In this document: in pieces, positions 9,800-53,334 of the stretch
Layout of the letters: the number at the start of each line of letters is the position of its first letter
How positions within the stretch are numbered: position 1 is the stretch's first letter
From: a virus
Direction: 5' to 3' (one strand)
DNA: 53,334 nt
Virus record (IMG/VR): IMGVR_UViG_3300045988_147485
The notes under the pieces: model-generated
What the model saw: only the letters and a program-made list of their open reading frames with translations
What the model was told of the DNA's origin: nothing
The model's database searches: none
Translations under genes and position numbers: made by a program

Positions 9800-9815
9800 T
9801 TTTTGTCCTCCTTTT

Positions 9816-15230: not shown

Positions 15231-15291
15231 CACTGCTGGCAGGAATCGAACCTGCGCCGCTGATCTGCTCTTCCAATTAAGCTACAGCAGT
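15231..15291 (-). tRNA. tRNA-like element lacking an anticodon arm (pseudo-tRNA / mini-tRNA)
   Basis: Minus strand: ACTGCTG TA GCTT-AATTGGAA-GAGC A GATCAGCGGC GCAGG-TTCGATT-CCTGC CAGCAGT G. It has a perfect 7-bp acceptor stem, a canonical D arm (A14, G18G19, A21) and a T arm (TTCGATT). Only about 10 nt sit where the 17-nt anticodon arm and variable loop should be. No CCA is encoded. Confidence 0.5.
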
Positions 15292-18721: not shown

Positions 18722-18735
18722 AGGAGGTGGCCATA

Positions 18736-19185: not shown

Positions 19186-19262
19186 GCCGAAACGCCCGGC
19201 AGGGCGTCAGCCGCGGGATGGTCTCCCGGCTCTGATGATGGCAGACCAGAAAGGGAAAGAAC

Positions 19263-26251: not shown

Positions 26252-26295
26252 TTAGCACTAACTTACGCCATCGGGGGTGCGTAATGATGTGCTAA
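26252..26295. other. Candidate attP core (nested imperfect dyad next to the serine integrase stop codon)
   Basis: TTAGCAC-TAAC-TTACGC-CATCGGGGGT-GCGTAA-TGAT-GTGCTAA. About 44 bp with two nested inverted repeats, the size and symmetry expected for a serine-integrase att site. Confidence 0.3.
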
Positions 26296-27647
26296 AAATC
26301 CCTCAAAAAAATTTTTACATCATCATTGACAATAACAACCTTATCAATTATAATTCTTAGTATCTTATTTTTTTGAGTTTTGTCGATGTTGTCCCAAACA
26401 TCGGCAATTTTTTTTATGTTGTCATAAACAAAACTCTTGTCCGGCTTATTTGCTTCTTTTTTCTCTTCTTCTGTTAGAGTTTTTTTCATTTCATACACAC
26501 GAGTTTCCTGCTTTTTTATCATATCAATGACTGTATCATTACCTTCTGCATACAATTCGTATAACCTTTTTAGTTTATTGGATTCTTTTTCAACCTGGTT
26601 AGATATAACCTCAACTTTGCTCTTAGGTTTAACAGGTTTATACAAAGAAATGTCCATTGATATTTTTAGAATCTCTTTTTCTACAGCAGACTCTATTTTA
26701 TCAGCAGGATTTGCATATCTGTTTGTACAATTTTTATCAAAATTAGGCAAATAATAAAGCCACTTGTCTCTTGAGCAACAGCATATTACTTTACCATGCT
26801 TATAATGCTTTTGGTAGCGCATTTTGCACCCGCATATTCCACATACGCATAATCCTGTTAAAAGATTTGGTGGATATACGCTTTTTGATCCAGCTGCTCT
26901 TGCACTCCTTATATCTTTCCCGATTTTCCATCTTTCTTTATCAAAAATAGGTTCATGCCTGCCTTGATATATTTTCCCCTTATACGGTATCATGCCAATA
27001 TTAACATAACTTGTTAAATTTTTGTGAATGGTCGGTTCCGCTACTCCTATTGCCTTTGATATTTTACACTCTGATGATCCGGATATATACATTTCAAGGG
27101 CTGTCCTCATTTTTTCGGCTCTTTCCTCGATTGGAACCAATATACCTTTATTTCTGTCATAATTATAGCAATACGGCGGGTTTCCCCCTCCTATCCAGTA
27201 TCCATTTTTTACTCTTTCTAACATACCACCACGCATACGCAATAGCATTGTATTACGATCATATTCTGCTACTGCAGCCATGATATGGGTTTGGAACTTA
27301 TCCTGTGGCGTCTGATATTTTGCAAAATCATGGATGCTTACTACCTCGACATTTTTAGGTGTAAAAATCTTCTCAATCATAAACAAAGAATCAACGCTAT
27401 CCCTTGCTAAACGATCCAGTTTGTAAACCAAAATTTTATCAATGTCGTTAAGATCAGAAATAAGTCTTTGCAACTCAACTCTTTTTGTCATTTCCATGCC
27501 GCTTAATCCGGCATCAATATACCATTCGGAAATAACCATTTCATGTTTTCTGCAATAATCCTCAATATCTCGCTTTTGGCTATCCAACCCAAAGCCTTCC
27601 TCTACCTGTTTGTCAGTTGACACTCTTATATATGCGACGCATTTCAT
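26292..27647 (-). CDS. int: Large serine recombinase (integrase)
   Basis: N-terminal resolvase domain AYIRVSTDKQ...LDSQ, YKLDRLARD, a recombinase domain, a Cys cluster (CVCGICGCKM...CCCS) and a C-terminal coiled coil. 451 aa. Confidence 0.9.
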   Translation of the reverse strand: MKCVAYIRVSTDKQVEEGFGLDSQKRDIEDYCRKHEMVISEWYIDAGLSGMEMTKRVELQRLISDLNDIDKILVYKLDRLARDSVDSLFMIEKIFTPKNVEVVSIHDFAKYQTPQDKFQTHIMAAVAEYDRNTMLLRMRGGMLERVKNGYWIGGGNPPYCYNYDRNKGILVPIEERAEKMRTALEMYISGSSECKISKAIGVAEPTIHKNLTSYVNIGMIPYKGKIYQGRHEPIFDKERWKIGKDIRSARAAGSKSVYPPNLLTGLCVCGICGCKMRYQKHYKHGKVICCCSRDKWLYYLPNFDKNCTNRYANPADKIESAVEKEILKISMDISLYKPVKPKSKVEVISNQVEKESNKLKRLYELYAEGNDTVIDMIKKQETRVYEMKKTLTEEEKKEANKPDKSFVYDNIKKIADVWDNIDKTQKNKILRIIIDKVVIVNDDVKIFLRDF

Positions 27648-33338: not shown

Positions 33339-33719
33339 TTACACATAACCTCTATTGCTTAATTCTATCGCTCTTTTTTCGGCTGCTATCTTGATAGCAC
33401 TTTTTTGGTCAAATGCAAAAACATCAACTTTTACATCCCCGTCATTAAATATTGTTACTGGATTATCGTTCGGGTCAAAATATTCCAGCCCGTCTTCATA
33501 GGTTTTTTTAACATTTCCATTTTTATCAAAGTAAATATTATAGAATTTTTTGCTCTGAAAAATAGGGTTGTAATTTTCCGTATCAAATTCCTCTATCCTT
33601 GCCGGGCTCCATTCTGTAGAGAATTTCTCTTTCAATATCTGCGCTTTTTCGTTGTCTGTTTCCACCGCGCAAATATGATATTCTGAATAGTCTCCTTTTG
33701 TTATCACATACACTTTCAT
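33339..33719 (-). CDS. Hypothetical protein (126 aa)
   Basis: ORF on the dominant strand. Confidence 0.4.
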   Translation of the reverse strand: MKVYVITKGDYSEYHICAVETDNEKAQILKEKFSTEWSPARIEEFDTENYNPIFQSKKFYNIYFDKNGNVKKTYEDGLEYFDPNDNPVTIFNDGDVKVDVFAFDQKSAIKIAAEKRAIELSNRGYV

Positions 33720-35651
33720 ACTTTTATCTTCCTTTCTTTAATAATTTCCTTATATAAATCTTCTTTTCCTGGAAATAACTGTCCTAAAATCGCAACAAGA
33801 ACATTTACGACAATGGAATTTCCAGATTGTTTGTATAACTGCGTATTTGAATTAACTTTTTCTGCCTTTTCAAAATCTTCATCCGAAAAATCCATCAATC
33901 TCCAACATTCTTTCGGTGTCAATTTTCTGATTCGGTATTGTGTTGCAACTTTTATCTGTTGTGTGCCGCCACCATTAACAGTAGTAATATTAGGACATAG
34001 TGCTTTTTCATCGTATACTGTGTTTGATTGATGCTGACCAGTTCCATTATCCATAAATCCTAACTGATTAGGCTTTTCCAACACCAAATTATCTTTCTGC
34101 ACACTTGTCAGGCAATTACTTGTACCATTATTATTTAATTCAAGTGTCTGTTCCAACTCAATTCCGGGTGTACGGTCAGATGGTTTTGTTGTATTTCTTC
34201 CACGCATTGCATCACAAACTTTCTCATCAGTAATATAGTTATAACTTCCACCGGGTAAGTTTGCCGGTAAACATAAGGAACATTCTCCCATCTGATAAAC
34301 TCTTTCCTGCTGATAATATTGTGTTCCGTTGTTTGACTTTTTTTCACCTAAACCACAGACACATTTTGTTTCTATAATTTTAGGTTGCAATCCACCGCCT
34401 CCACAAGTATTCATTGTTGGTGCCACACCTCCTATATCATAAACACGATTGGCACTTTCAAATGTATGGTCTATCGTGTTATCCATTTGACCTATTATTT
34501 TTACATCTGCCATTTTCATCACCTCAATAACTCCGCAGCACATTTTATTTACTCTTTCAGTAGGGCATATCGCACCCTCACAAATCTTTGGGCCACCAAA
34601 CTTTTTACTTTCAAAAAGTGTTATACCTATTGCATATTTAACTTTTGACATTCAATCACTCCATTGGTTCCATAGTTATTTATCCCTTTATAATCTCTTG
34701 ACATAAGCGTTGATGATACATCAATTTTTTGTGCTTGTGGTTCTAATTGTTTATCAATCATTCCTTTCAACAATACAGTTTCCATCTGACCGCAAGTTTG
34801 AGATTCCTGTGTCATATCTTGCCTTAATGCAGTTTCCGACTTGCTTTTCTCTTGGCTCGTTAATTGTTCCGTCAACGCAAATCTGCTCTGCTCTGCTCTA
34901 TTGATTGTATTTTGAAGTGTTTCGTTGTCAATTAGTTTCTGTATCAATTTCTGTGCTTTTTCGTTATTGATGTAATACTTCTCGTCAACTTCATCTTCCA
35001 GATAATCTTTCATCACTTTTTGCAGTTCAATAGGGTTTGGAAATGTAAAGTTATAATTTCCTAAAATACTAACCATAAAGCAACGATTTCTATTTTGAGC
35101 AACACCATAATTCTTTGCGTTTAAATCCTGCCAATAATTTGAATAACCTTTGCTTTCAAGGAATGCTATCCATCTTTGAAAATCTTCCATATTCTTCTTT
35201 CCGTGAACCTGTGGAACATTCTCCATAAGTAACACTTGTGGTAAATTGCCAACCTCATTCAGCAACCGTTCTACTTCCCACAATAGTCCGGACCTGGTGC
35301 CGCTACCTTTAACCATTCCCTTTTGTTTACCGGCAACCGATAAATCTTGACAAGGAAAAGAGTAAGTAAGTAAGTAAAGGTTTCAGTGTCAACTATTCCA
35401 AGATCAGAACCTCTTATTTGAGTTATGTCTGTAGGATCAAAACAAGTTCCGTGAATTTCGTTGTAACTTTTAATAGCAAATTTATCAAACTCGATTACTT
35501 TGTAATGTTCGAAGTCAGATCCAAGCATTTTTAATGCCATAGCTTGTGATCCTATTCCAGCAAAAAGTTCTATTAAACGAATTGGTTTTTTTATCTTAAA
35601 TGGCTTCTTTATAAGGTGAAGCAAATCAATTTGTTCATACATACTATCCAT
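33716..35651 (-). pseudogene. Multispecific-type DNA (cytosine-5) methyltransferase split into three ORFs (35651-35271, 35316-34627, 34651-33716)
   Basis: Motif I ELFAGIGS is in ORF1. Motif IV TYSFPCQDLS is readable only in the next frame just after a (TTAC)4 repeat. ENV and QNRNR are in ORF2. RKLTPKECWRLMDF and GNSIVVNV are in ORF3. Four TRD-like TL/PTM/CLT/NIT segments lie between motifs VIII and IX. Confidence 0.75.
35362..35377 (-). repeat. Tetranucleotide repeat (TTAC)x4 on the coding strand at the methyltransferase frame break
   Basis: The plus strand reads GTAAGTAAGTAAGTAA. Five or two units would fuse motif I to motif IV in frame (..TFTYLLTYSFPCQDLS..). Confidence 0.9.
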
Positions 35652-35844: not shown

Positions 35845-36588
35845 CTACTCTCTAATCTTTTCTCCTTTGGATTCGATCACAGCATCTTCGGGTGGAAAGT
35901 CAATTTTGTTTTCGTTCTCAAGAATTTCCTGTTTGACCTGTTCTCCAATATCATAAGTCACTTCGTTGTCCTTAAAATCCCCCTCTACAATCTCATCCGA
36001 TGTGTAAAGTCCCATTGAGATTTCGGGGCAATTCATTCTGGAAAAGAATGAAGCCGCACGGTATCTAAGCATTACCTGTGGCATGGTTTTCCACTTACTG
36101 CCGTTTTTGTCAAACCATTTTTCTGCCTTTGCCATTTCCATGTCAACAAGTGGTCCGTCTACTCTTCTTCCGTGTTTCGTAGTCCAGCATCTGCAAGAAT
36201 AAGGCTTGGAATCCTTGTCTTGCTTTTCGTCAAACTGCAATTCGATGTCATATCGTCCGCTGGCATTTATCATGCCGATAAGAGCGGATGCTCTCCATGC
36301 CGGGCGCCCCTGGATAATATCCAGATTGCGCATTACTTCAAATGGGCTTGCTCCAAATCTTTGCGACATATCAATGGCAATTAAGCAGTTACTTTCATTC
36401 CCCTGGTATTCTCTTGGCACCAAAGTAGATTTTGACAGCGCTTTTGCCATCTGCATTGCCATGATAAAATTGTCTGATGTCCCAAAAATACCCAAACTGT
36501 AGTCGGTTACTTTGTTGTTATTTTTGTTTGGCGCAACCTCTGTTTTTTCGTGCTGAACAATTTCAGTACTTGTTGTTTTTTCGTCCAT
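35845..36588 (-). CDS. recT: RecT-family single-strand annealing protein
   Basis: MAKALSKSTLVPREYQGNESNCLIAIDMSQRFGASPFEVMRNLDIIQGRPAWRASALIGMINASGRY fits the RecT core. Confidence 0.65.
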   Translation of the reverse strand: MDEKTTSTEIVQHEKTEVAPNKNNNKVTDYSLGIFGTSDNFIMAMQMAKALSKSTLVPREYQGNESNCLIAIDMSQRFGASPFEVMRNLDIIQGRPAWRASALIGMINASGRYDIELQFDEKQDKDSKPYSCRCWTTKHGRRVDGPLVDMEMAKAEKWFDKNGSKWKTMPQVMLRYRAASFFSRMNCPEISMGLYTSDEIVEGDFKDNEVTYDIGEQVKQEILENENKIDFPPEDAVIESKGEKIRE

Positions 36589-36590
36589 AT

Positions 36591-36854
36591 TTACTCGTCC
36601 TCCTTCCCATCATCAGAAGAACCTCTCAATTTATCAATCAGTTCGTCAAAAAGTTTCAAAATATGATCTTTTGTTTCTTCTGTGATTTCTTTTTCGCTTT
36701 TTCTTGAATCAGAAATCACTTTTTCTAATTCATCATTTCCAATGTTTTCTCGCAGTGCTCTCAACAATGTACAAGTTTCTGCCATGATTACTATCTTAAT
36801 TCCATCTACGCGTACCGTTCCTTTGTCTACATGAATCATAATATTTTCACTCAC
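36591..36854 (-). CDS. Hypothetical acidic protein (87 aa)
   Basis: ORF overlapping the RT stop. Confidence 0.4.
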   Translation of the reverse strand: MSENIMIHVDKGTVRVDGIKIVIMAETCTLLRALRENIGNDELEKVISDSRKSEKEITEETKDHILKLFDELIDKLRGSSDDGKEDE

Positions 36855-37884
36855 TTTCTAATATTTTTTTGCAATACAAATCCATTGTTTTGCATAATTT
36901 GATACAATTCCCATGCATTGCATGGTTTCTCCAAGCATTGTATTTTTCATAAAATTTTTCTTCTTGCATCTTGCCGCTTTTTACAAGTTTTGACCAAGAC
37001 AACAATTTTTTTCGTATTCTTCTTTTGTTGTAACTTTTTATCTTTCGTATATATTTTCCGTCCTCCGTCATGTAGTGATGGAAGCCAAGAAAACTAATAC
37101 CGCATTTGAATGGAATAATCTGCGTTTTGCCATTTAATGATAATCCAAGGCTTTTCACAAATTCTCTTATATATTCAAGGCACCATTTCAAATATTCTTT
37201 GTCATGGTGTATTAAGTAAAAATCGTCCATGTATCTTCCGTAAAGATCAATCCCCAGTTCTCCTTTTACCATCTTGTCCATTCCGTTTAGCATTAGCAAT
37301 GCATATATCTGTGCCGCTTGATTTCCTAACGGCAATCCAGGACTATCGGTGCTATTCACAAGAAGATGGTTCAACCATTTTACATAATCATCTTCAAAAT
37401 GATAATCTAAAATATCAAGAAGAATTTCATGGTCAATTTCGTAAAAGAATTTGTGGATGTCGCATTTTAGAATCCATCCATTTAATTTGTTTGAATTGTA
37501 AAAAGTAGTCATATGTTCTTTCAAACAATCCATACCAAATAAAGTACCTTTTCCTATCTGCCCGGCATAATTTGTCCTTATAAACTCATCTGCTAAAACG
37601 GGATGCAAAATATTGTCACACAAGCAATGTTGAACTACTTTGTCCTTGAAAGAGCAAGACTTAATCACTCTCTCTTTTGGTTCATAAATTTTGAACTCAT
37701 TGTATTTGCTCATTTTATATGTTTGATTCTCTAAACTCTCTTTCAAGATATTTAATCCGTCAAGGCTCATGCTCTTAAATTTCGTACAACTTCCGTTATT
37801 AGTTTTGCCAGATTTAGCACGCCTATATGCCGTATATAGGTTGTCAAAATCACATATGATACTTTTACAATCCAAATTAAACAC
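36847..37884 (-). CDS. DGR reverse transcriptase
   Basis: RT motifs QIGKGT, GLPLGNQAAQIYALLML (DGR-type motif 4) and RYMDDFYLIH (YxDD). It sits directly downstream of the template repeat and avd. The start is GTG 37884 or, more likely, TTG 37875. Confidence 0.85.
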   Translation of the reverse strand: MFNLDCKSIICDFDNLYTAYRRAKSGKTNNGSCTKFKSMSLDGLNILKESLENQTYKMSKYNEFKIYEPKERVIKSCSFKDKVVQHCLCDNILHPVLADEFIRTNYAGQIGKGTLFGMDCLKEHMTTFYNSNKLNGWILKCDIHKFFYEIDHEILLDILDYHFEDDYVKWLNHLLVNSTDSPGLPLGNQAAQIYALLMLNGMDKMVKGELGIDLYGRYMDDFYLIHHDKEYLKWCLEYIREFVKSLGLSLNGKTQIIPFKCGISFLGFHHYMTEDGKYIRKIKSYNKRRIRKKLLSWSKLVKSGKMQEEKFYEKYNAWRNHAMHGNCIKLCKTMDLYCKKILESE

Positions 37885-37973
37885 TCCTTTGTATTTACCC
37901 TTTTCGGGATGGTCATGCGATTTTTTGTATCTTTGTCTGGTTTCGGCTTATTGCCTACTCCGTCTGCCTGTTT

Positions 37974-38050
37974 GATACAGAATGGGCGAACACCATTGTT
38001 GTTGTTGCAGTTATTGTTGTTGATATTGCCGTCCGGCGCAACAACCGCCA
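37974..38050 (-). repeat. DGR template repeat (TR), 77 nt, AAY-rich
   Basis: Noncoding copy of the three VRs. The variable block reads GAC GGC AAT ATC AAC AAC AAT AAC TGC AAC AAC AAC AAT. It starts 25 nt after the avd stop. Confidence 0.85.
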
Positions 38051-38075
38051 AAATTCATCGCATAACCAATATTTT

Positions 38076-38441
38076 TTATCTTTCCTTGTCTTTGGTTCTC
38101 CATGCAATAGCCATGTGTTTTATGTCCGAAACCATCTTTGACCAATATTCCATGCTTTTCACATTGATAATGTTAAGTTTCATAGATAGTTCGATGTAAA
38201 ACAATAAGTTATCACACCTTGTTATTGCTTTTGTCTGTAATTCAGACCTTTCCCTTTTGTATTTACGAATATCTGTCCTGTTTGCTTCTGTAAGATATGC
38301 GTAAATTTCTAATGCACTATTTTGCATCTTATCTACCAACGAAAACCTGTATTTTTTAGGATACCTATTACAATTTGAGGTAATCCTTAATGTATGTTCT
38401 GCCAGTTCCATTGATTTTACGATTACTTTCAAATCTGCCAT
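38076..38441 (-). CDS. avd: DGR accessory variability determinant (Avd, four-helix-bundle protein)
   Basis: 121-aa basic helical protein (ELAEHTLRITSNCNRYPKKYRFSLVDKMQNSALEIYAYL) in the canonical position between target and TR. Confidence 0.75.
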   Translation of the reverse strand: MADLKVIVKSMELAEHTLRITSNCNRYPKKYRFSLVDKMQNSALEIYAYLTEANRTDIRKYKRERSELQTKAITRCDNLLFYIELSMKLNIINVKSMEYWSKMVSDIKHMAIAWRTKDKER

Positions 38442-38454
38442 CTACCATCAGTCC

Positions 38455-39057
38455 TTACGATTCAAAGATTTCAGATTTTAAGATACAAACTGGGCGAACG
38501 CCATACTTGCCGCAGCAGCTAATGCCGTTGATATTGCCGCCCGGCGCAACAACCGCCACGCTACTTTCGTAGCCGTTGCTCTTTGTACTCCATGGCGTGC
38601 AGAGCCACCACCATTCGCCCGTGTTTGGCAAAAGTTTTCTGTATTTTCTATATTCGTCAACCGTCAATAAAGAAATCAACTCCACCGTATCTTCGTACTC
38701 ATCAATTCCATCCAGAGAAATAAGATCTCTTCCAAGTGGCAAAATATTTCCTACCCCGATTTCATCTTTAATCTTTTCCAACAAATCATTGTTGAGGTAT
38801 TCTCTCAATTTACTTTTAGACCAATCATTACTGCGTGAATCAAATTTCATGTCTCCGATACTGCTATTGGCAATACAAAAATATCCATCATTTGTTTTGT
38901 CCAAGATTTTCCATTCGATTGTGGCAAGGTTAAATGTGTCTCCGATTTTTAATCCGGCCGGAAGTAATCTCGATTCTTTTTTGAGGACTTCCATTGCTTT
39001 TGTCAGTTCATTTATCTTGTCCTGCAATGTCTCGATTGCTAAGTTATTTTTACCCAT
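38455..39057 (-). CDS. DGR target protein 1 (C-terminal variable ligand-binding domain)
   Basis: Start MGKNNLAIE after AAAGGAGGAAAA. C-terminus WWWLCTPWS...AVVAPGGNINGISCCGKYGVRPVCIL carries VR1. No signal peptide or TM segment. Confidence 0.8.
   Translation of the reverse strand: MGKNNLAIETLQDKINELTKAMEVLKKESRLLPAGLKIGDTFNLATIEWKILDKTNDGYFCIANSSIGDMKFDSRSNDWSKSKLREYLNNDLLEKIKDEIGVGNILPLGRDLISLDGIDEYEDTVELISLLTVDEYRKYRKLLPNTGEWWWLCTPWSTKSNGYESSVAVVAPGGNINGISCCGKYGVRPVCILKSEIFES
38482..38558 (-). repeat. DGR variable repeat VR1
   Basis: Aligns to the TR over 77 nt. In the variable block, 9 differences are at TR adenines and 2 are not (AAC->AAG, GGT->GGC). Two further non-adenine differences are in the 3' IMH-like end. 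Confidence 0.85.
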
Positions 39058-39058
39058 T

Positions 39059-39661
39059 TTAATTTTCCTCCTTTGATACAAAGATATTAGAGTTTAAGAT
39101 ACAAACCGGGCGAACACCATCGCCGTCGTTGCAGCTATGGCTGCCGATATAGCCGACCGGCGCAACAACCGCCAAACTACTCCATCCACGGTCGGATGTA
39201 CTCCATTGCGTTATTGTCCACCACCAATCGTTAAGTTTGTTGCAAACTAAAAGGTCATTGTATTTTCTCGCCTCATCAAAGGTAATTGGGCGAAAAATTT
39301 CCTCTGTAACTTTTGATTTGTTCTGTCCGTCAACACTTTCCAAAGAAACCTCATGCTTTATGAAATTTTCTTTTCCAATTTTCGCAATCAATGGGTTTTC
39401 AATGTTATTTTCAATAACCTTCTTTAAGTTTGAAGAACAATAATCAGTACTTTCTCCAAATTCAACACTTTCATCTGTTACAAAGCCTTTTGTAATAGCA
39501 AGTGTCCCTCCATTGTACTCATGATCGAGAACAATAAAGTCTTCCTCGCCAGCCACAAAACTGTCTCCCGGATTAAGAGACGATAATAAAACCTTGTTAT
39601 CAGAATTAAGTTCATTGACAATTTCCATTGCCAATTTGTAAATTTTGTCTTTTTTGTCCAT
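39059..39661 (-). CDS. DGR target protein 2
   Basis: Start MDKKDKIYKLA after AAAGGAGGTAAAGGA. C-terminus WWWTITQWS...AVVAPVGYIGSHSCNDGDGVRPVCIL carries VR2. Confidence 0.8.
   Translation of the reverse strand: MDKKDKIYKLAMEIVNELNSDNKVLLSSLNPGDSFVAGEEDFIVLDHEYNGGTLAITKGFVTDESVEFGESTDYCSSNLKKVIENNIENPLIAKIGKENFIKHEVSLESVDGQNKSKVTEEIFRPITFDEARKYNDLLVCNKLNDWWWTITQWSTSDRGWSSLAVVAPVGYIGSHSCNDGDGVRPVCILNSNIFVSKEEN
39098..39174 (-). repeat. DGR variable repeat VR2
   Basis: All 12 differences from the TR upstream of the IMH-like end are at TR adenines. Confidence 0.85.
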
Positions 39662-39674
39662 TCCTTTACCTCCT

Positions 39675-40094
39675 TTAGTTAAATGGCAATTCCGATTCGA
39701 TGTTTTCTGGTATTTCCATAAAATCATCATCATCCTGTTTCTGTGTAGGTTCGGCGTTATTGTTGCCTCCGGCCTGTTTCCGCTCGGCAAACTCGATTTC
39801 ATCTGCCATGATCTGGACGCTGTACACTTTCTCTCCGTTCTTATTTGTGTAGTTGTCGTTCTGAACACGGCCTACCAGAAGCATACGAGAACCCTGTCTG
39901 AAATATTTTTCAACAAATTCTGCCTGTTTACCAAAGGCAGTACAATTAAAAAAATCTACATTAGTTTCTCCCTCACGAGGAAATCTCCTATTTATTGCTA
40001 AACTGAATCTAGCAATAGCCATAGTTTTTTCGCCCTGTGTATAACGGATTTCCGGGTCTCTTGTAAGATTTCCCATCAAAATCACTTTATTCAT
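39675..40094 (-). CDS. ssb: Single-stranded DNA-binding protein
   Basis: MNKVILMGNLTRDPEIRYT...FFNCTAFGKQAEFVEKYFRQGSRMLLVGRVQN OB fold, with the acidic tail ESELPFN. Confidence 0.9.
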   Translation of the reverse strand: MNKVILMGNLTRDPEIRYTQGEKTMAIARFSLAINRRFPREGETNVDFFNCTAFGKQAEFVEKYFRQGSRMLLVGRVQNDNYTNKNGEKVYSVQIMADEIEFAERKQAGGNNNAEPTQKQDDDDFMEIPENIESELPFN

Positions 40095-40110
40095 CTCATT
40101 CTCCTTTCTA

Positions 40111-40827
40111 CTAAAAAGGGCATTCGTATTTCCCTCTTATTTCAATTTTCATTCCTGGATGTGCTATGTATGTATCGCATTCAGAAACTTCCTTTATTTC
40201 AGCCAGTATTCTTTCTTCGTCTGTGCTTTCTTTCCCTAAGTGGCAAAGAATTACTGTTGAAAGAAATTTTGTTTTACTGGACTGAACAAAATTCTTTACT
40301 GTAAAAAGTTCTGCATGGCCCTTTATTTTGTGAATGTTTTTTGAATCCTCTACATTCACAAGATTTTGAATGTAATTACATTCAAGGACCATATGGTCAA
40401 TTTTTCTTTTTGCAAAATTGTACGGGCAATACTCAAAGTCCGTAATGTATAATATTGTTTCATCTTCATGCGAAATCAAGAATCCACAATTTCTCGTGCC
40501 ATCGTGCGGCACTTGAAAAGCAGTAATTTTGAAGCCGCCCAACTTCTCCGCAATCATTACTCTTGCATCTGCACTTATCATTTCCAGTTCTTCATATGGT
40601 TTGAAAACTGGTATACCGCATTTTTCAATCTCTTTTATTGACCGGGAGTGGTCAAAGTGTTTATGTGACACCACACACCCAACAACTTTTTTTATATTCC
40701 AATCAAGCATTTCTTTGATACTTTTAATTGGCATCCCAGCATCAAGAAGAAGTGTCTCTTCTTGACAAGTTATTGCGTATGCATTTCCGCTGCTCCCGGT
40801 TCCGCAACATCTAAAATCCACAATCAT
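40111..40827 (-). CDS. MBL-fold metallo-hydrolase
   Basis: SHKHFDHS (HxHxDH) motif, 238 aa. Confidence 0.7.
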   Translation of the reverse strand: MIVDFRCCGTGSSGNAYAITCQEETLLLDAGMPIKSIKEMLDWNIKKVVGCVVSHKHFDHSRSIKEIEKCGIPVFKPYEELEMISADARVMIAEKLGGFKITAFQVPHDGTRNCGFLISHEDETILYITDFEYCPYNFAKRKIDHMVLECNYIQNLVNVEDSKNIHKIKGHAELFTVKNFVQSSKTKFLSTVILCHLGKESTDEERILAEIKEVSECDTYIAHPGMKIEIRGKYECPF

Positions 40828-40830
40828 TCC

Positions 40831-41400
40831 TTACGATTCAAAGATTTCAGATTTTAAGATACAAACTGGGCGAACACCATTGCTGCTGAGGCAGTTAAGG
40901 TTGCGGATAAAGCCGCCCGGCGCAACAACCGCCACGCTACTTTCGTAGCCGTTGCTCTTTGTACTCCATGGCGTGCAGAGCCACCACCATTCGCCCGTGT
41001 TTGGCAAAAGAGAACGGTATTTTTTGTACTCATCGGCGGTCAAAATCGACACCAGGTCATATGTTCCTCCATAATCTTTAAGGCCATCTAAAGAAGTTAA
41101 ATCTCTTTCGATTATATGTAAGTTTTCCCTTCCGATTTCATCTACAAAAGAATCAGATAAAATATTACTTAATTCACTGTCCCGCCAATTATTGCTTTCT
41201 TCATCAAACTTGTATTTTTCATCCAGAAAATCGGCAATAACCAAGTAACCTCCTTTTACTTTGTCAAGGCAAGTGAATTTAATGCCTCTGAACTCAAACC
41301 TATCACCAATTTCGGGTGGTTTAACAAAATTGATACTCTTGTTGTTTTCGAGTTCCCGTACCTTTTTTTCTAACATTTCAACTCTTTCTTCTAAATGCAT
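40831..41400 (-). CDS. DGR target protein 3 (close paralog of target 1)
   Basis: Start MHLEERVEML after AAAGGAGAAAAAT. C-terminus ...AVVAPGGFIRNLNCLSSNGVRPVCIL carries VR3. The 3' 180 bp are identical to target 1 outside the VR. Confidence 0.8.
   Translation of the reverse strand: MHLEERVEMLEKKVRELENNKSINFVKPPEIGDRFEFRGIKFTCLDKVKGGYLVIADFLDEKYKFDEESNNWRDSELSNILSDSFVDEIGRENLHIIERDLTSLDGLKDYGGTYDLVSILTADEYKKYRSLLPNTGEWWWLCTPWSTKSNGYESSVAVVAPGGFIRNLNCLSSNGVRPVCILKSEIFES
40858..40934 (-). repeat. DGR variable repeat VR3
   Basis: All 11 differences from the TR in the variable block are at TR adenines. Confidence 0.85.
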
Positions 41401-41413
41401 ATTTTTCTCCTTT

Positions 41414-43309
41414 CTATAAATCATTTTTTATTTTCAGTTTTTCGTCACTAACAACCATGATTACAACTTGGTTTTCAATCATTTCCAGTGCCGCTTTTAA
41501 GTTGTTTGTATCAAGGCTCTCTCCATCATCTATGAAAACAGGGCATTTAATACCGTATTTTCTTTGCATGGATTGGCAAATGTCAATTTTACCAAGGATC
41601 CTCTTTGCCTTGTTGGACATTGTGTTTGTGATTGAAAAACCGTCTACCATTGGTGTACAGGTATTTTTTATCGTTCCTGCTTTACCTCTTTCAAAAAGTT
41701 TCCATTCCACAAAAGAAAATTTTTTGTTTACATCTTCCTGCAAAGATTCTGCTTTTTTGACCTCAAATTCCGTCAAAAGAGAAAGTATTCTTTGAGCATC
41801 CGTAGCAGTTTGAGCCACTTCCCGTTTTTCTTTTGTAAGTTCCTCAATTCTCTCTTCCTCTTTTTCCGTGTTTGCGTCTGATATATATTTTTTTGCTTCT
41901 ACCAACTGCTGCCGTAAATCACTTTCTTTGATCCGCAACTGTTCTCTCTTTCCAGAAATAGAGGAATATTTTTTTATTGCTTCTTCTTTTTCAGAGATTT
42001 CATTCTGAATCCGTATGTACTCCGGAGTGCCGGATATATCCGCTTTTTCCGGTATTTTTGAAAGTTCCCTTGACTTTTCGCACAACTTCTCTTTCAATAC
42101 AGAAAGAGTTTTCTCCGCAAAATTTACAGATTCATCATTTTCCTTGATCTCCTGTTCCAGTTTTTCAATGGCTTCTTTTGCATATTTCCCGTACTTTTCA
42201 ATCTCCAAAAGTGATTTTTTTATGCCCTCATTAAATTCTTCTTTCTTTTTCTCCTGCTCATCCTCTTCATAAGGTCTGCCACAGGTAGGGCATACTAAGC
42301 AATTTTCATCCATTTCAGCCGATTTCAAAGCTTCCCATTTCTCACGATGCACCCGGATTTCATTTTTATATGCCGTTATCTCATCCGTTATATTGGAAGT
42401 ATTATTTTTGAGAGAATCAATTTTTTTCTCCATCTTCTCAATCTCATCCTTGATACAAGACATTTCATATGCCGTTGTATTCCTCTCTTTATTGATCCGA
42501 TCCTGTTCTTTCATCGTTAAATTGTTCTGCTTAAATTTCAGTTCCAATATACCGTCAGAGATCGTTTTGTATTTCTCTTCCATGATAGAATTGTTTTCTA
42601 TTAAGGAAACAGTTTCATCAATTTCTTTCTCTAACTGTTTCTTTAACAGTTCCATTTCGGAAATATCCTTGTCCTCTTTTTCCTTAATCTGATCTCTAAG
42701 GACACGGATTTCAGCATCTATTTTTGTGATGTTTTCATCACAGTCTTTTTTCTTTTGTTTCGCCTTTGCCGTTATCTCTTCTACTGTGTTTTTTGAAAGA
42801 AGTTCGGAAAGTTCTTCATTGTCCGCAATTTCTTCATCTGGCTTTGCGGAAATACCAGACAAAAGAATTTTTCTCATTTCATCCGGCTTTTTCTGAATAA
42901 AGCCGTCACAAAAACTGCACAACAGCAGAATGTCCTTTTTTACCGGAAATGCTTCTTCAAAATTCCTTTTTGTCATTTTTACACTATTCACAAAGTATGT
43001 GTTAGCGTCTTTGTATTCCGTTCCGTCCTCTGAAATGGTTCTTTTCTGAACCTTTTCAAATTCAATCTCTTTCCCGTCCTCTGTCTCAATTACAGCCATG
43101 ACAGAAACCGGCTCTTCTTTCCCTCTCATCCTTACTTCTGGTGCAGATTTCATGAGAGAGTCAGTATCAAAAAACAGCCAAGCATAAGCATCAAAGTATG
43201 TGCTTTTCCCTGCGGCATTTTCTCCGCTTATGATATTTTTTTCTGCAAACTCTACCGATTCACTTTCAAAATTTTTGAAGTTTTTAAGAATCAGCCTTTT
43301 TAACTTCAT
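41414..43309 (-). CDS. SMC/Rad50/SbcC-like AAA ATPase with long coiled coil
   Basis: Walker A GENAAGKST at the N-terminus, a central coiled coil with a CxxC hook-like CPTCGRP, and Walker B PVFIDDGESLD at the C-terminus. Confidence 0.7.
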   Translation of the reverse strand: MKLKRLILKNFKNFESESVEFAEKNIISGENAAGKSTYFDAYAWLFFDTDSLMKSAPEVRMRGKEEPVSVMAVIETEDGKEIEFEKVQKRTISEDGTEYKDANTYFVNSVKMTKRNFEEAFPVKKDILLLCSFCDGFIQKKPDEMRKILLSGISAKPDEEIADNEELSELLSKNTVEEITAKAKQKKKDCDENITKIDAEIRVLRDQIKEKEDKDISEMELLKKQLEKEIDETVSLIENNSIMEEKYKTISDGILELKFKQNNLTMKEQDRINKERNTTAYEMSCIKDEIEKMEKKIDSLKNNTSNITDEITAYKNEIRVHREKWEALKSAEMDENCLVCPTCGRPYEEDEQEKKKEEFNEGIKKSLLEIEKYGKYAKEAIEKLEQEIKENDESVNFAEKTLSVLKEKLCEKSRELSKIPEKADISGTPEYIRIQNEISEKEEAIKKYSSISGKREQLRIKESDLRQQLVEAKKYISDANTEKEEERIEELTKEKREVAQTATDAQRILSLLTEFEVKKAESLQEDVNKKFSFVEWKLFERGKAGTIKNTCTPMVDGFSITNTMSNKAKRILGKIDICQSMQRKYGIKCPVFIDDGESLDTNNLKAALEMIENQVVIMVVSDEKLKIKNDL

Positions 43310-43446: not shown

Positions 43447-44034
43447 TCAACAACCATGATTATTACTCCTTTCTATTCTCACAACATCCAAGGATGCCTC
43501 GTATGTTGTGAACAACATTCCATCTTTTAAGTATGGCCGTTCTAAGTACCGTCCAATTCCTCCTACCATATCCCCTCTTTGGGATTTTTTTAATATGGCG
43601 GCGTTTCTTCCCCATGCCACAATTGGGATATAAGCAGGATTGCCATTTCTTCTGTTACAAGCAATTATTATTGTAGTTATTTCTCTTCCGTCTTTTTTTT
43701 GCCCGTAATGCGGATCAGAAACCACAACACCATGTACAGAAACCTTGTTTTCATTTTTCTCCACCTCTTCTTTCGTTATCTCATTGGCAAATAAATATCT
43801 GCCATGTGCTGTCCTTTTAGAACTTCGCAGGCTACCTTTGACGGTCGCATATTCGCCAACTTTTGGGAGAAAAACAATCAGATTGTCTGGGATCATTACC
43901 CATATACAATCCACCTTTTTGCTTTTCCTCTCTACCGCAATTTGAAAGTAATAAAACTTTTGCCCCCATGCAGCATAGGAAAATTCCAAATTACTACTTA
44001 TCCTCTTCCCGGATATTGTCACTTGATTTTTCAA
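43447..44034 (-). CDS. SSB-like protein with two OB-fold-like halves (candidate)
   Basis: Two similar halves (VTISGKRISS...YYFQIAVERKS...D.IWVMI and VSVHGVVVSDP...IIIACNRR...YIPIVAWG). Confidence 0.35.
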   Translation of the reverse strand: MKNQVTISGKRISSNLEFSYAAWGQKFYYFQIAVERKSKKVDCIWVMIPDNLIVFLPKVGEYATVKGSLRSSKRTAHGRYLFANEITKEEVEKNENKVSVHGVVVSDPHYGQKKDGREITTIIIACNRRNGNPAYIPIVAWGRNAAILKKSQRGDMVGGIGRYLERPYLKDGMLFTTYEASLDVVRIERSNNHGC

Positions 44035-46419: not shown

Positions 46420-46605
46420 TGTGCAGCGCCTCCAATATCTGTCAAAATTTGTCGAACGATTTTTCTTGATTTTATTATTATTTGTTTATAAAATATTTAT
46501 AAATGAGGGAACCGCCAGCCAAAGCCATTCCCTCATCATCCAGAAATTGCCTTGTCGCTCAAGACATTTTGTATTTTAGCAAATAATTTTACACGGAGGA
46601 ATATC

Positions 46606-47334
46606 ATGCAAAGAGAAAAATTGCTGGAAATTCAAGAGAATCTTGTCACCGACAGAGAAAACTTTTTGAGCGCATTTAGACAGAATATGTTTTTGTACCT
46701 GTCACAAAAGGAAATTACAATCAGAGAAATATCAGAATCGTCCGGGGTATCATTCTCGACCCTAAACAATTTCCTTTACGGAAAATCAGACGATATGAAA
46801 TTAAGCACTGTTGTGCCGATAGCAAGGGCATTAAATGTAAGCGTGGATGAATTGATCGGATCTGGAACGATTGATGAGGATTTAGCGTCAATTCTTTCTC
46901 CCTGCCGTTCCCTTTCTCCCAAGGATAAATACTTTATTCGCTGGTATGCGGATTATCTGAAAGAATCAGAAAAGGGATTTACAGAAAAGGAAAAGACTAT
47001 TACCGTTATGAAATTATCGGATAATATGGAACTAACAAACGACTGCAAGAAAATAGAAATATCATCATTAGAAAGCAGGCTTTACAGTACGATATTTTTT
47101 GGTATATCCGTCTCTAAAAGTGACTATATGCCGTTATTTTCTCCTTTTGATACACTGCTGATAGCAAATGACAGGAACCCAAGAATAAGCGAAATATGCG
47201 TTATTAGGGTTCAGAATTTTATACGATTCTACAGAAAGATAGGCTCGTTTTTCTGCTCATTAAAAAACGATAAGCCTGTATTGAAAGATAATGAAATAGA
47301 TGATTTTATAGGCTATGTTGCCTGCATCATTTAA
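46606..47334 (+). CDS. XRE-family HTH protein with extended C-terminal domain (CI-like, long form)
   Basis: Likely start MQREKLLEIQ after GGAGG. HTH ITIREISESSGVSFSTLNNFLYGK. The ~150-aa C-terminal domain could be a degenerate S24/oligomerisation domain. Confidence 0.55.
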   Translation: MQREKLLEIQENLVTDRENFLSAFRQNMFLYLSQKEITIREISESSGVSFSTLNNFLYGKSDDMKLSTVVPIARALNVSVDELIGSGTIDEDLASILSPCRSLSPKDKYFIRWYADYLKESEKGFTEKEKTITVMKLSDNMELTNDCKKIEISSLESRLYSTIFFGISVSKSDYMPLFSPFDTLLIANDRNPRISEICVIRVQNFIRFYRKIGSFFCSLKNDKPVLKDNEIDDFIGYVACII

Positions 47335-47373: not shown

Positions 47374-48021
47374 TTACAAAACACTCTTAAATACAAAGCC
47401 ATATTTCCCTTTGTATTTTACTTTTGCGTAGCCAAGTTTGGATTTATACAGTACTTCTACTTTTGAGCCTTTTTTGATAGACAAAATAGACTTGCTGGCA
47501 CGAAGAGTTTTCTTGCTCCATAATTTGCATGGTTTTTTCGTAACAGAAGTCCATGTTTTTTTGAAGTTGTCCGGGGTTTTGTATTTTTCTTTCAGTTTGA
47601 CTGTTGTACTGCCCCACTTTCCAATGTAAAAATGTGGTGTATCAACAATGCTTTTCCAATCTCCGCCCCAAGAAAGCCCTACTTTTTTTGATTTTGCGAT
47701 CTTAGCAACTTTCTTAATGGTCGCATTGTCATAAAGCAATTTGCTGTCGTTGATAGCAATATCAAAAGCAATTCCCCACATGTGCTGTGAACTGTAGGTA
47801 CTTCCTTTTGCGTTTGTAACCACTTTACCCGGCTTTGTCCTGCCCTTTGCATAAAGGCTGTCTTGATACTCTTTTGTCCGGAATCCTTCCGTAATGATAA
47901 GATAAATTCCATTCTCATTGCAGTGTTTGAGCAAAAGTTTTAATTTGTACACCAGCCATGGGTGCATTTTTTCAAGGTCAACTCTAATATCATTTTGTTT
48001 TTTCATCTTTTGTTCCCTCAC
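47374..48021 (-). CDS. Endolysin: M15 (VanY/L-Ala-D-Glu peptidase-like) catalytic domain plus C-terminal SH3b-like domain
   Basis: ITEGFRTKEYQDSLYAKGR...SQHMWGIAFDI...GGDW....DTPHF (H..D...H zinc site). Basic C-terminal repeat KGSKVEVLYKSKLGYAKVKYKGKYGFV. Confidence 0.75.
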   Translation of the reverse strand: MREQKMKKQNDIRVDLEKMHPWLVYKLKLLLKHCNENGIYLIITEGFRTKEYQDSLYAKGRTKPGKVVTNAKGSTYSSQHMWGIAFDIAINDSKLLYDNATIKKVAKIAKSKKVGLSWGGDWKSIVDTPHFYIGKWGSTTVKLKEKYKTPDNFKKTWTSVTKKPCKLWSKKTLRASKSILSIKKGSKVEVLYKSKLGYAKVKYKGKYGFVFKSVL

Positions 48022-48307: not shown

Positions 48308-48632
48308 TGTTACCACTTCCTTTCTCTATCAGTTCATATAATTCGCATAATGCGGCATTTACATCATTTTCATATGACGCCTGCTGCTCCGCTAACTCAC
48401 ATAGGGCGGCTTGTACATCTTCACCCTCGGTCGCAGCAAGCTCCGCTAAGAGCCGCTGCTGTAATTCCTCGGTAGTGTACTTACGACAGTGAGACAATAT
48501 CTCGACAACTTCTTCTTTATCATCGAAAACTTCCTCTACACTTACTCGGTCCCATTTTGACCAGTCGATGTTTTTGATTTCAACTTCGTTTTCATCAATG
48601 TTTTTAATTCTAATATCATCCATAAAAATCAC
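48300..48632 (-). CDS. Small acidic tail-fibre-associated protein (XkdW-like position)
   Basis: 110 aa with internal repeats DVQAALCELAEQQ / DVNAALCELYELIE. Confidence 0.4.
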   Translation of the reverse strand: MIFMDDIRIKNIDENEVEIKNIDWSKWDRVSVEEVFDDKEEVVEILSHCRKYTTEELQQRLLAELAATEGEDVQAALCELAEQQASYENDVNAALCELYELIEKGSGNNG

Positions 48633-51600
48633 ACTCCAATCACATATCTCAATACATGGTTTGTACTATCCACGGTAACACCATTTATTTTATTGTTCTT
48701 ACTTTCATTAGCGCTTGATCCTGTTATGTATGCTTGGTTTACATAAACATACTTATAACTAGGCCACGAGCCTATACAATACATCGCATGGCCTCCACCA
48801 GGTTGTTCAGTAACTATTTGTTTAGGAATAAAGAAACAATTCCATTCGTAATTTTGTGCCCCGTTAGAATACTTACTCCAAACCAAAACTATTCCATTTA
48901 ACTGATTTGAAATTTTATCGTTTAGTGTTGCAGTTTGGTTAGCATTCATAAAATGGGCTCCTGTCCAAAGATATTTTAACTGCCTATTTGATGTGATATT
49001 TCCCCGAGTCAACAACTGTATCTCATTTCCATAAATATTCGTGGCACCGATTTTATTGTTGTATCCTCCATATCCAAGTTCAAAATTGTTCGAAGCGCTT
49101 ATCATATGAATATTTTTAACTCGGTTTCCATATGAATTTACAAATGAAATTCCATCATCTTCGATAAATGTAGTGTTATTTACCGTTAGATCTCCGTAAG
49201 TTTTTAGGCCTGCTCCAATAGTAAAATTCGATACGCCTGTAAAATATATTCCATCCAATTCGTATGTTACAATCTTACTTGTTGTTGATTGAGCGTCTCT
49301 AAATTCAATTTTATCAAACTCTCCTTTTATCCCTACTGTTTCGCTATCGTTTTCAATTTTGAAGCCGCTCAACTCATATCTAGCAATAGCACCGGCACCA
49401 TTTAATGTGTAAAAACCATTAGAAGAAATAGCCATGTGTTCAAATTCTTCTGTTCCAACCACACCAGAATACAAATCAAGTTTTTTTGTTCCGATACTGA
49501 CTTGATTATGATCTGTGTCTAGTGCTATTATTTCAGCAAGATCCGAAGAGACGCCAAATGGCCCGAATTTGCTATCTCCTGTTATGGTCATGGATGTTGC
49601 TGTTATGTTTTGTGCAAATAAATTTTCAACATCAATTTCATTTGATGTAATGCTTTTTGCCACAATCTTATCTGCCGTAATGGTATGATCTGTTAAAACA
49701 TATCCATCAAGCGTATCTACATTTTGGCTTTCCAATTCTCCAAAGTTGTTTAATGCATATAATACGCCTTGGTTATTTCCTCTAAGCAATATTCTGTCTG
49801 CTATTAAGGTGCCGGCCGTAATACTGGCGGCGTTTACTTCCACGCTATCAAGGAATCCAGTAATATGCCCCTCAACAATCGTTGCCCGGTCAATCAGTCC
49901 AACATCTGCAAATAATTTCCCTACATTTGCCGTTTCTATATTTGACAATTCTATGTTTGCGTATTTTATATCAGCCGCATCCACTGTCAAATAACCTAAC
50001 TCGGCTACTTTTGCGGTCAAATTATCAGTTGTAATCGCTTTAGCCTCTAATGTATCAATTTTACCGTCTACTGCCTCCAGATTTGTGATTGTAGCGTATT
50101 TCAAATCTGCACTATCTGCTTTCAAATAGCCCAGTTCTGCCACCTTTGCGGTCAGATTTTCTATGTAGGCATTATCTGCGGTCAAATCAGTAATAAATGA
50201 CTTATTCACTTTCTCAAAACCGATTGTCGCATCTGCAATATTCGCATTTTCTATGGTCGAATCTGCTATTTTTTCTCCCAAGATGCTTTTAGCGTCCAGT
50301 AATTTTGCCTTTTTCATTGAATTAAGAACTCCTGCACTAAGCGTTCCAATTCCTGCGGAACTACTTGCCCCACTGCTTGTCGTAGAATCATTTCCGCCGT
50401 ACAAATCAATATCTGCCGGAGAAGATATTGACATACTGAACATTCCACCTTCCCATGAAAGATCAAGTGTGCCTACATACACAAAGCGGACTGTGCCATT
50501 GATTCTTATTTTTATTCCTGCGCCTGCATAAACAAAAGGACTGTACCCATTTAATTCTGTTTCTATTGGGTAATAATAAAAAGGCTTGTTAAGAGCCATT
50601 AAAGTAGCAAAATTATGAATTGGATATTTTGCGAAATCCATTTGACCCCAGTATGTAGGGCTAAGATTTGTTACATCGCACCATCCACCATCATCTTCTG
50701 ATACTGTGACAGGGTAGTAAATTATTTTTCTTGCTTCATCTATAACCTTTTCATTTAGAATATTTACGGTTCTTGTTGTGTCCATAAGCGCAGGAGCGTT
50801 GATAGCATCATATTTTGCTGTTGTTCCGGTTGAATCCGTGACTTTCTTTGAAAATTCTGTCATTTGCATCTGCTGGCACTCTACATCCACTTTGTACGGA
50901 CAATAGTATGCGTTCATCCTCTGGACCGGTTCTTCTATTGTATCATCATCAAAGCATCCGCAATCTGCAAAGTCATGTTCATCGTTATGCATTATGACGA
51001 TCGAACCGGCAATTTCAACGGCATTTGAGTACAAAGCAACTGCCAGTTTAGATATAGCATTTCTGACACTTGTAAATCCGTCCGTCATAGTATATCCGGA
51101 ATATGTGATACCGTTTGATTCCATCTCACTTTCTTCAATTCCATGAGGGATAACTATAGACGAGTTTTGGTAATATTCCCTTTGTGTTTCAGTCCTATTT
51201 ACATCAAAGTTAAAAAGAACCGGGACACCAAATGTATCGTAAATGTAGTGGACCAGTCCTTTTATCGACAAAATAGAACTTTTCCATATTCCCTCTGGCT
51301 TCGTTGCGTCTTTAGCAATAAAGTCTCCGCACATTTCAAGCATACCAATACCACTTACAGATACATATTCACTTGTGCTTTCTGGTGGTTCTTTTACATA
51401 GAAAACGCCAAAGTTCTGCCAGAATCCGTATAACTTAAATTCAAGCCGGATAAAATTGCCCTGTGCTATTTTATCTGTTGGCATCATTTCTATGGTACAT
51501 GTGGGGCTAAAAGTTCCCCCATATGTAAAGAAATTATCCGACATTACACCGTTACTAATGCTGATCTCAAAAAAGTCAAAATCTTCTGACTGCTCTAAAA

Positions 51601-52947: not shown

Positions 52948-53334
52948 GCCATACTCCATGATGTGCCGCCACGGCCTTTACTTATTTTTGTTGCGTTATT
53001 CATTACCTCTGTTGTAATCTTTTTGCCGTCCAGGTATACATCCCCTCCACCAATATCCATTTTACCGATGGTTTCATTTATGGCCGCTTTTACGGCGGTA
53101 TAAACACTAGGAGCAACGGCGTTTGTAATTCCGGTGTATATCTGTTCGTTGTTTACGACTTTATTCTGTGATCCTACTTTTCCTACAAGTTCCGGTCCAC
53201 TTTCTCTTGCCATAAACATTTGACCAACTGGCGGTGTACCACCATTCTTGTACCACTCTACCTTATATCCGGCCGCTATGTACGGTGCCGCACTGGTAGA
53301 ATCAAGAACAGTTATGCCTGTTCGTTTCATTCTT
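52944..53334 (-). CDS. Tape measure protein, C-terminal part (joins to 4347..1 by circular wrap)
   Basis: The track ORF MKRTGITVLDSTSAAPY... overlaps the 55-bp repeat in the same frame as the ORF running off base 1. Combined gene is 4683 nt including the stop. Confidence 0.85.
   Translation of the reverse strand, partial: RMKRTGITVLDSTSAAPYIAAGYKVEWYKNGGTPPVGQMFMARESGPELVGKVGSQNKVVNNEQIYTGITNAVAPSVYTAVKAAINETIGKMDIGGGDVYLDGKKITTEVMNNATKISKGRGGTSWSMA
53280..53334. repeat. Terminal direct repeat (copy 2), identical to 1-55
   Basis: Same 55-mer as the window start. Consistent with circular contig closure or terminal redundancy. Confidence 0.95.

Follow-up and report, generated by a model that had tools for sequence, protein, structure and literature searches.

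A Bordetella-phage-type diversity-generating retroelement with one template repeat and three DUF6273 targets, very probably active, in a human-gut phage genome

In the 53,334-nt viral record IMGVR_UViG_3300045988_147485 (hereafter the window, meaning the whole stretch of DNA analysed), a gene for a reverse transcriptase (RT) lies next to a gene for an Avd-like protein, and a 77-nt sequence between the two recurs at the 3' ends of three further genes. An earlier note, made from the sequence alone, read this arrangement as a diversity-generating retroelement (DGR) in which one template repeat (TR) serves three variable repeats (VRs). The locus raises two questions, whether the element is a working DGR or the remains of one, and how a single template came to have three targets. 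We consider it very probable that it is an active DGR of the Bordetella-phage type, whose carrier is a temperate, siphovirus-like human-gut phage with a complete and circularly assembled genome.

Repeat finding, with a clean MAFFT alignment, recovered one repeat family of four copies, and a BLAST search of the TR against the whole window returned the TR itself and exactly three VRs, nothing else, which confirms the proposed set of one 77-nt TR and three cognate VRs at gene 3' ends. The same record exists as an ENA contig from a human gut metagenome (LIJU14-1_SAMEA2338758 scaffold_384; L052 below), and independent gene calls on that contig place no gene over the TR, in agreement with the earlier description of it as noncoding. 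The repeats and the genes that bear them are as follows:

37974-38050, minus strand: TR, 77 nt, between the genes for Avd and RT (core 37983-38050, tail 37974-37982)
38482-38558, minus strand: VR1, at the 3' end of T1
39098-39174, minus strand: VR2, at the 3' end of T2
40858-40934, minus strand: VR3, at the 3' end of T3
38455-39057, minus strand: T1, 200 aa, DUF6273 protein carrying VR1 (DUF6273, E 6e-12; phrog_9958, E 1e-47)
39059-39661, minus strand: T2, 200 aa, DUF6273-like protein carrying VR2 (phrog_9958, E 1e-29; DUF6273, E 8e-4, below cut-off)
40831-41400, minus strand: T3, 189 aa, DUF6273 protein carrying VR3 (DUF6273, E 4e-9; phrog_9958, E 4e-42)

The mutable core of the repeat is its first 68 nt, comprising 21 A and 47 non-A positions. 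Compared with this core, VR2 and VR3 differ at TR adenines only (12/12 and 11/11 differences), just as the earlier note had stated, and VR1 shows 12 differences, 10 of them at A and the other two a C->G and a T->C; for VR1 that note had counted 9 of 11 at A, and the adenine bias it described stands while the count is replaced by our recount over the core. TR adenines carry 33 of the 35 core differences overall, against an expectation of 31% (21/68; binomial P = 4e-15). The variable codons of the TR are nine AAY, as previously counted, together with GAC and ATC, and with this make-up adenine substitution is unable to create stop codons; the arithmetic of the sequence gives a potential diversity per target of ~4 x 4 x 15^9, or ~6e11 peptides. 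The final 9 nt read TTCTGTATC in the TR and GTTTGTATC in all VRs, with two fixed non-A differences, and are preceded by the G+C-rich GGTGTTCGCCCA, an arrangement that does not vary among the 16 related contigs. A 3' boundary resembling the IMH*/IMH (initiation of mutagenic homing) pair would be expected to look like this, and we take it as a candidate for one.

Natural variation was followed across independent assemblies, which here stand in for read mapping. Exact-protein look-ups with Avd and with the single-stranded-DNA-binding protein (SSB) encoded nearby gave 20 loci from human gut assemblies; after removal of same-sample re-assemblies (L039/L045, L050 and L052) and of L053, which is cut off before the VRs, the comparison set consisted of 15 related contigs plus the window, that is, 16 near-identical genomes. 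The TR is identical in 10 of the 16, the other six carrying an alternative allele (C52T, T58C), one of them with a further change, whereas nearly every VR among the related contigs is distinct (14/14 for VR1, 12/12 for VR2 and 14/15 for VR3). When each VR of those contigs is compared with its own TR, 487 of 515 differences over 41 TR/VR pairs fall at adenines (P about 1e-207). Between contigs the pairwise difference at VR adenine sites is 0.57-0.64 per site, as against only ~0.002-0.04 per site at VR non-A sites and in 425 nt of gene flanks, and 0.017 per site in the TR. Heterogeneity is confined to the VRs at TR-adenine positions, the pattern that the earlier note had named as the one to look for in a population. 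A flank figure of 0.48 for VR3 in group A was discarded as an indel artefact of ungapped comparison.

In L038 and L040 some VRs are off the TR register through 3-nt indels in the AAC-rich stretch. Such indels next to AAC, along with non-A differences, are known from multi-target DGRs, where the indels are ascribed to template slippage (PMC5758913).

The most direct view of the process comes from L046 and L049, two contigs from different studies. Over 10,800 aligned positions they show 23 differences, of which 10 lie in VR1, 12 in VR2 and one outside the VRs, VR3 being the same in both, and 22 of the 22 VR differences are at TR adenines. That near-isogenic contigs differ almost solely at VR adenines indicates an active element. 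In addition, the non-A substitutions of the second TR allele (C52T, T58C) were found in 18 of the 18 VRs of its carriers, the outcome that TR-to-VR transfer predicts. Across these assemblies, diversification is ongoing and one-way in nature at all three VRs, the VRs varying and the TR not.

It might be argued that the three genes are ordinary paralogues with a conserved C-terminal motif in common, that gene conversion and normal mutation account for their divergence, and that the intergenic copy is a pseudogene fragment; the 3' ends of T1 and T3 do in fact recombine or gene-convert, VR1 being equal to VR3 in L044. However, normal divergence cannot put 487 of 515 differences on the 31% A positions of a noncoding copy, nor does it explain why that noncoding copy does not change when variation in the coding copies is 30-fold faster than in their own flanks; the adenine specificity refutes this explanation, to which we give practically no credence.

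A different question is whether the DGR treats its three targets alike, or whether VR1 and VR2 are edited fast and the remote VR3 is slower or is partly refreshed by gene conversion from T1. The L046/L049 pair, in which VR1 and VR2 were rewritten and VR3 was left unchanged, speaks for unequal activity, as do the identity of VR3 with VR1 in L044 and the published finding that target position and orientation alter editing efficiency in a reconstituted DGR (PMC12875486). Yet a single isogenic pair is the base of this proposal, and across contigs VR3 is equally diverse (14 of 15 distinct, 0.64 differences per A site), and we therefore hold unequal activity to be possible but doubtful.

The RNA around the template was analysed in an alignment of the segment from the Avd stop to the RT start in 17 distinct relatives, and the elements that emerged are:

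38057-38068, minus strand: 5' strand of a long-range duplex, 12 nt just upstream of the TR
37910-37921, minus strand: 3' strand of the duplex, in the spacer, pairing with 38057-38068
37898-37908, minus strand: stem-loop CCC GAAAA GGG, immediately 3' of the duplex and with the A-rich run UAAAUACAAA after it

Unguided RNAalifold predicts the 12-bp duplex, which is 100% paired in the 17 sequences, with compensatory double changes in 7 of the 12 pairs; its covariation score was reached by 0 of 500 shuffles, and slid registers came nowhere near it. The stem-loop (3-4 bp) is likewise predicted by RNAalifold, and two of its pairs covary (UA/CG and CG/GC). A cryo-EM structure of the Bordetella DGR ribonucleoprotein contains a 'cPRT Stop' composed of an avd:Sp duplex of ~11 bp, a short stem-loop and adenosines making A-minor contacts (bioRxiv 10.1101/2023.10.23.563531), an element that is needed for cDNA synthesis and is predicted in 207 other DGRs (bioRxiv 10.1101/2023.10.23.563531; Handa et al. 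2024). The predicted duplex, stem-loop and A-run have the layout of the cPRT Stop, and the compensatory conservation argues that the RNA is under selection and the element in use. The locus adds an independent, covariation-backed case for the RNA 'stop' element of the Bordetella structure. A candidate template:primer pairing, between TGTATC at the TR end and GATACA in the spacer, is either invariant or mismatched across the alignment, and a search of Rfam gave no family match within the DGR region.

The two protein components of the cassette are encoded on either side of the TR:

36847-37875, minus strand: DGR reverse transcriptase, 342 aa (TTG start at 37875; the open reading frame (ORF) reaches GTG 37884)
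38076-38441, minus strand: Avd accessory protein, 121 aa (phrog_3206, 'Avd protein of DGR', E 1e-20)

The RT gene was rightly recognised in the earlier note, and both motifs quoted there, GLPLGNQAAQ and YMDD, are present in its ORF; the start that had been given, GTG 37884, gives way to TTG 37875 as the most likely one, as called by gene callers, which give the RT as 342 aa in 20 related contigs. The protein matches RVT_1 (E 1e-15) and phrog_1423 (E 4e-99), and among solved structures bRT, the DGR RT of the Bordetella phage, is its best relative (8ub7, E 1e-34), with the YMDD and the LGxxxxQ of motif 4 aligned. Group II intron RTs (E 3e-14) and retron RTs (E 5e-12) match more weakly, and the score with a group II maturase model, 98.8 bits, is far under its cut-off of 300. 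The best annotated relatives all come from known DGR phages: nd12 (47.5% identity), nd4, FP_Brigit, FP_Toutatis and Lelie. Judged by match scores, the RT would belong to the DGR clade with bRT as its closest solved member, in line with the placement that the earlier note had expected. Its motif 4, LGNQAAQ, has A where the DGR consensus [LIV]GxxxSQ has S. The phrog_3206 match supports the Avd that had been proposed beside the RT, and with it all the defining components of a DGR are present and intact.

By homology with Bordetella phage BPP-1, the biochemical steps may be pictured as follows. The Avd-TR-RT segment would be transcribed, and the RNA would fold such that the template is framed by the 12-bp duplex, in which the spacer pairs with sequence 5' of the TR, and by the small stem-loop and the A-rich tail. 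RT and Avd would then copy the TR to cDNA, misincorporating opposite template adenines, and the cDNA would take the place of the 68 homologous nt at the 3' ends of the three co-oriented DUF6273 genes. The 9-nt tail would be left unconverted in each VR, keeping the transfer one-way.

Each of the three targets has an N-terminal helix of ~30 residues, and in each the VR stops 8 codons ahead of the stop codon. T1 is 29-35% identical to small DUF6273 targets of published gut-phage DGRs, and DUF6273 DGR targets have been published in the Faecalibacterium phages Lelie, CP11, Roos and Pioen (PMC11792537). A resemblance of DUF6273 targets to C-type lectins has been reported from published models (PMC10743442; bioRxiv 10.1101/2024.10.15.618418), on which the randomised residues would lie in a surface hairpin of a lectin-like domain, and by analogy the targets may serve in ligand binding. 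When the target alignment was used for a profile search among solved structures, the sole match was the DUF6273 domain of an IgA peptidase (E 0.002).

Several points weigh against the reading of the locus as an active DGR of this type. Our AlphaFold model of T1 is of moderate confidence (pLDDT 74.6), and with this model Foldseek retrieved DUF6273 proteins only (9qa6, E 6e-4, and BFVD matches) and recovered neither Mtd nor TvpA nor any other lectin-fold DGR target, so that the lectin fold rests on the published models. The Avd matches to NF033474 DivGenRetAVD (E 6e-12) and Pfam bAvd PF22296 (E 3e-5) are both under the curated cut-offs. Folded as DNA, the 76 nt that follow each VR do no better than shuffles (z -0.2 to -1.3) and give no hairpin or cruciform, a feature that most DGRs lack downstream of the VR and that does not define them (PMC5758913). 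For the window's own element, activity is suggested by what its relatives do, and its VR1 bears two non-A mismatches, C52G and T58C. T58C is the base of the other TR allele, and the VR1 flanks match the group carrying that allele, which indicates that VR1 probably predates the recombination that imported the present TR; the window's VR1 may not have been rewritten since that swap. For C52G we found no explanation.

Mismatches of this kind would suit a fossil element, in which the repeats record past mutagenic homing and the DGR itself is now defunct. Against this stand the intact RT, Avd and three targets in ~50 related loci, the near-isogenic contigs that differ almost solely at VR adenine sites and the independent contigs that each have their own VRs, and the compensatory changes that maintain the RNA elements. 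We regard a defunct element as highly improbable, and an active DGR as much the better account of the locus.

With regard to the genome that carries the DGR, the ends of the window share an exact 55-nt overlap (1-55 / 53280-53334) that resembles an assembler k-mer overlap and indicates a circular, complete genome of ~53,279 bp with 38.2% G+C. The minus strand carries almost all of the genes, and matches to PHROG identify the following:

8591-9829: major head protein
10833-12260: portal
13026-14768: terminase
26292-27647: serine integrase
46552-47334: repressor-like regulator, divergent
47374-48021: endolysin
48629-52015: tail-fibre-like protein

The DGR sits in a long early operon, embedded among phage recombination genes:

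41414-43309, minus strand: SbcC-like ATPase, first of the DGR-bearing stretch, followed by T3
40111-40821, minus strand: metallo-beta-lactamase (MBL)-fold hydrolase, between T3 and SSB
39675-40094, minus strand: SSB, canonical, 139 aa, between the MBL-fold hydrolase and T2
36591-36839, minus strand: 82-aa ORF directly 3' of the RT, called in all related loci
35845-36588, minus strand: RecT, after the 82-aa ORF

On the minus strand the order is SbcC-like ATPase-T3-MBL-SSB-T2-T1-Avd-TR-RT-82-aa ORF-RecT, the MBL-fold hydrolase and SSB genes parting T3 from the cassette, and the genes abut or overlap, from which co-transcription is very probable. The 82-aa ORF, a possible member of the DGR, has no Pfam or PHROG match. 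In 50,697 phage records megablast retrieved no match to the region, relatives in that set being found at the protein level only, and a one-genome-per-species scan gave a single relative, in a metagenome-assembled genome of Acetatifactor sp., from which a host (in the Lachnospiraceae?) is tentatively assigned. Flanking host sequence is present in the contigs of 226 kb and 114 kb that hold L037 and L044.

Some further features of the genome were observed. A second SSB-family protein of the early operon, 180-195 aa, is encoded at 43447-44034 on the minus strand, and an SSB Pfam domain is seen in its relatives. The MBL-fold hydrolase (40111-40821) has a 'faint' match to anti-Pycsar Apyc1 (PF23023) in precomputed tables, and a Pfam scan at E 0.01 gave only Lactamase_B families; possible roles for the protein are those of a recombination nuclease and of an anti-defence phosphodiesterase. 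A cytosine-C5 DNA methylase at 33716-35651 (minus strand) is in three consecutive or overlapping ORFs of 126, 229 and 311 aa, called likewise in L035, L039, L045 and L052, which indicates that the split is conserved and not an error of sequencing. At 19185-19250 the plus strand bears a type II hammerhead ribozyme (RF02276, E 1.7e-10; 62 bits, gathering score 37), which begins at the final base of a 152-aa plus-strand ORF (18727-19185) in a genome whose genes are nearly all on the minus strand. Finally, a 61-nt match to the Rfam tRNA model at 15231-15291 (minus strand; 46 bits against a gathering score of 29), with no ARAGORN tRNA call, may be a tRNA-like or truncated element and perhaps what is left of an attachment site.

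Comparison with more distant phages suggested where the third target came from. In 33 IMG/VR phages of 40-66 kb, with RTs ~70% identical to that of the window, there are only two VRs, in tandem and adjoining Avd, and the gene order is ATPase-T2-T1-Avd-TR-RT-RecT-MBL-SSB; in the window's clade it is ATPase-T3-MBL-SSB-T2-T1-Avd-TR-RT-RecT. T3 is most like T1, with ~50% DNA identity over the first 420 nt, and its last ~180 nt are essentially those of T1 outside the adenine sites, including ~80 nt upstream of any TR homology. This pattern, together with the two-VR relatives, shows T3 to be a lineage-specific duplicate of a T1-type gene, with rearrangement, and recombination, rather than the DGR, has homogenised the 3' end of T3 with that of T1. 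In four contigs (L035, L038, L041 and L042) T2 and T1 are fused into one chimeric gene of 176-196 aa (~5390-5990 in L035), T2-type in its 5' part and T1-type in its 3' flank, leaving two targets, apparently through deletion by recombination at the VRs. In L044, VR3 and VR1 (5161-5237 and 7537-7613) are identical, all 11 adenine substitutions included, owing either to gene conversion between the paralogues or to assembly collapse of the copies. The identity in L044 and the T2/T1 fusions agree with recombinational exchange among the targets.

The element was then set against known systems. BPP-1 (mtd-avd-TR-brt) shares with it the order target(s)-Avd-TR-RT on one strand, TR/VR differences specific to adenines, a VR at the target C-terminus, an IMH/IMH*-like 3' boundary, and an upstream:spacer RNA duplex with stem-loop and adenosines. 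Its bRT is the best solved homologue of the RT, and in the alignment R74 is kept and I181 is replaced by Leu here, both being residues of bRT with a role in A-mutagenesis. BPP-1 differs in having one target rather than three, a 381-aa Mtd trimer with prism and sandwich domains where the present targets are DUF6273 proteins of 189-200 aa with an N-terminal helix, a hairpin after the VR where we found none, a motif 4 ending in SQ rather than AQ, and its cassette in the tail module rather than in a recombination operon.

Likenesses are also found among gut phages. Phage nd12, whose RT is the closest annotated one, and nd4 (Baykov et al. 2023, PMC10743442) have a small single-domain DUF6273 'target2' with short flanking helices and a C-terminal VR, to which T1 is homologous (32-35% identity); there the small target is paired with a large Ig-domain 'tentaclin' bearing an N-terminal VR, whereas the window has no tentaclin and three small paralogues. 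In the Faecalibacterium phages FP_Toutatis, Lelie and CP11 (RTs 35-37% identical) an Avd-TR-RT cassette serves two DUF6273 targets, one of them small and remote from the cassette (17.5 kb from the TR in Toutatisvirus), within the early/replication region (bioRxiv 10.1101/2024.10.15.618418; PMC11792537). The second target of these phages is a large Hoc-like or Ig-domain protein beside tail genes, whereas here all targets are small, two in tandem beside Avd and one 2.8 kb away.

The earlier note had called three targets for one TR unusual, and this stands weakly, in that the phage cases described in detail have one or two, yet multi-target DGRs have already been published. In Treponema denticola, in Stenotrophomonas sp. 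and in the three-target DGR of Wu et al. 2018 (PMC5758913) one TR likewise serves several paralogous VR genes that are diversified independently, although those DGRs are mostly cellular with lectin targets of the FGE-sulfatase type (FGE, formylglycine-generating enzyme) and the present one belongs to a phage and has DUF6273 targets. That work illustrates a three-target DGR and reports up to eight targets (PMC5758913), and VR-VR-TR-RT is the second commonest DGR cassette (PMC11661182). DUF6273 targets, gut-phage DGRs with two targets and a remote one, and a three-target DGR are therefore already known in kind from the literature. The lineage-specific features are the third target gained through duplication and rearrangement, the cassette inside a phage recombination operon, and the restriction of the targets to small paralogues, with no large tail or decoration target.

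The literature takes small DUF6273 targets as receptor-binding, and the operon setting invites another proposal, that those of the window are early non-structural binders expressed with the recombination genes and not receptor-binding proteins of the virion. The targets abut or overlap the genes for the SbcC-like ATPase, MBL-fold hydrolase, SSB, Avd/RT and RecT and, measured along the transcribed strand, have the head, tail and lysis genes >20 kb away, a placement that is alike in ~50 related loci; the small target of Toutatis is found among methylase, regulator and replication genes, and that of nd4 beside a polymerase-annotated gene. Inspection of the T1-T3 translations by eye (no predictor was used) revealed no evident N-terminal signal sequence, but a signal peptide is not required in a virion protein, the position of a gene counts for little as evidence, and elsewhere DUF6273 is found on tail or decoration proteins (the tentaclins, and a Pioen target with a tail-fibre-like N-terminus; PMC10743442, PMC11792537). 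We consider an early non-structural role unlikely for these three targets, and somewhat less likely again the general form of the idea, in which the small DUF6273 targets of gut Firmicutes phages would be early non-structural proteins, such as hypervariable proteins that bind factors of the host or of rival phages.

A weaker corollary is that a DGR placed between SSB, RecT and the SbcC-like/MBL pair might borrow their single-strand DNA functions for cDNA installation. To our knowledge, this step has not been explained for any DGR. All VRs are oriented like the TR, and SSB and RecT flank the cassette. In a reconstituted DGR, editing is inhibited by ExoI and prefers targets co-directional with replication (PMC12875486), and in that light the orientation and the flanking genes are suggestive for cDNA installation, nothing more.

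The picture of how DGRs work is unchanged by the present element, which provides a natural example of textbook quality of one template with three targets, of target gain by duplication and of target loss by fusion of a tandem pair. The phage family is a convenient natural system in which to relate the rate of rewriting to target position, and in which to seek the ligands of small DUF6273 targets.

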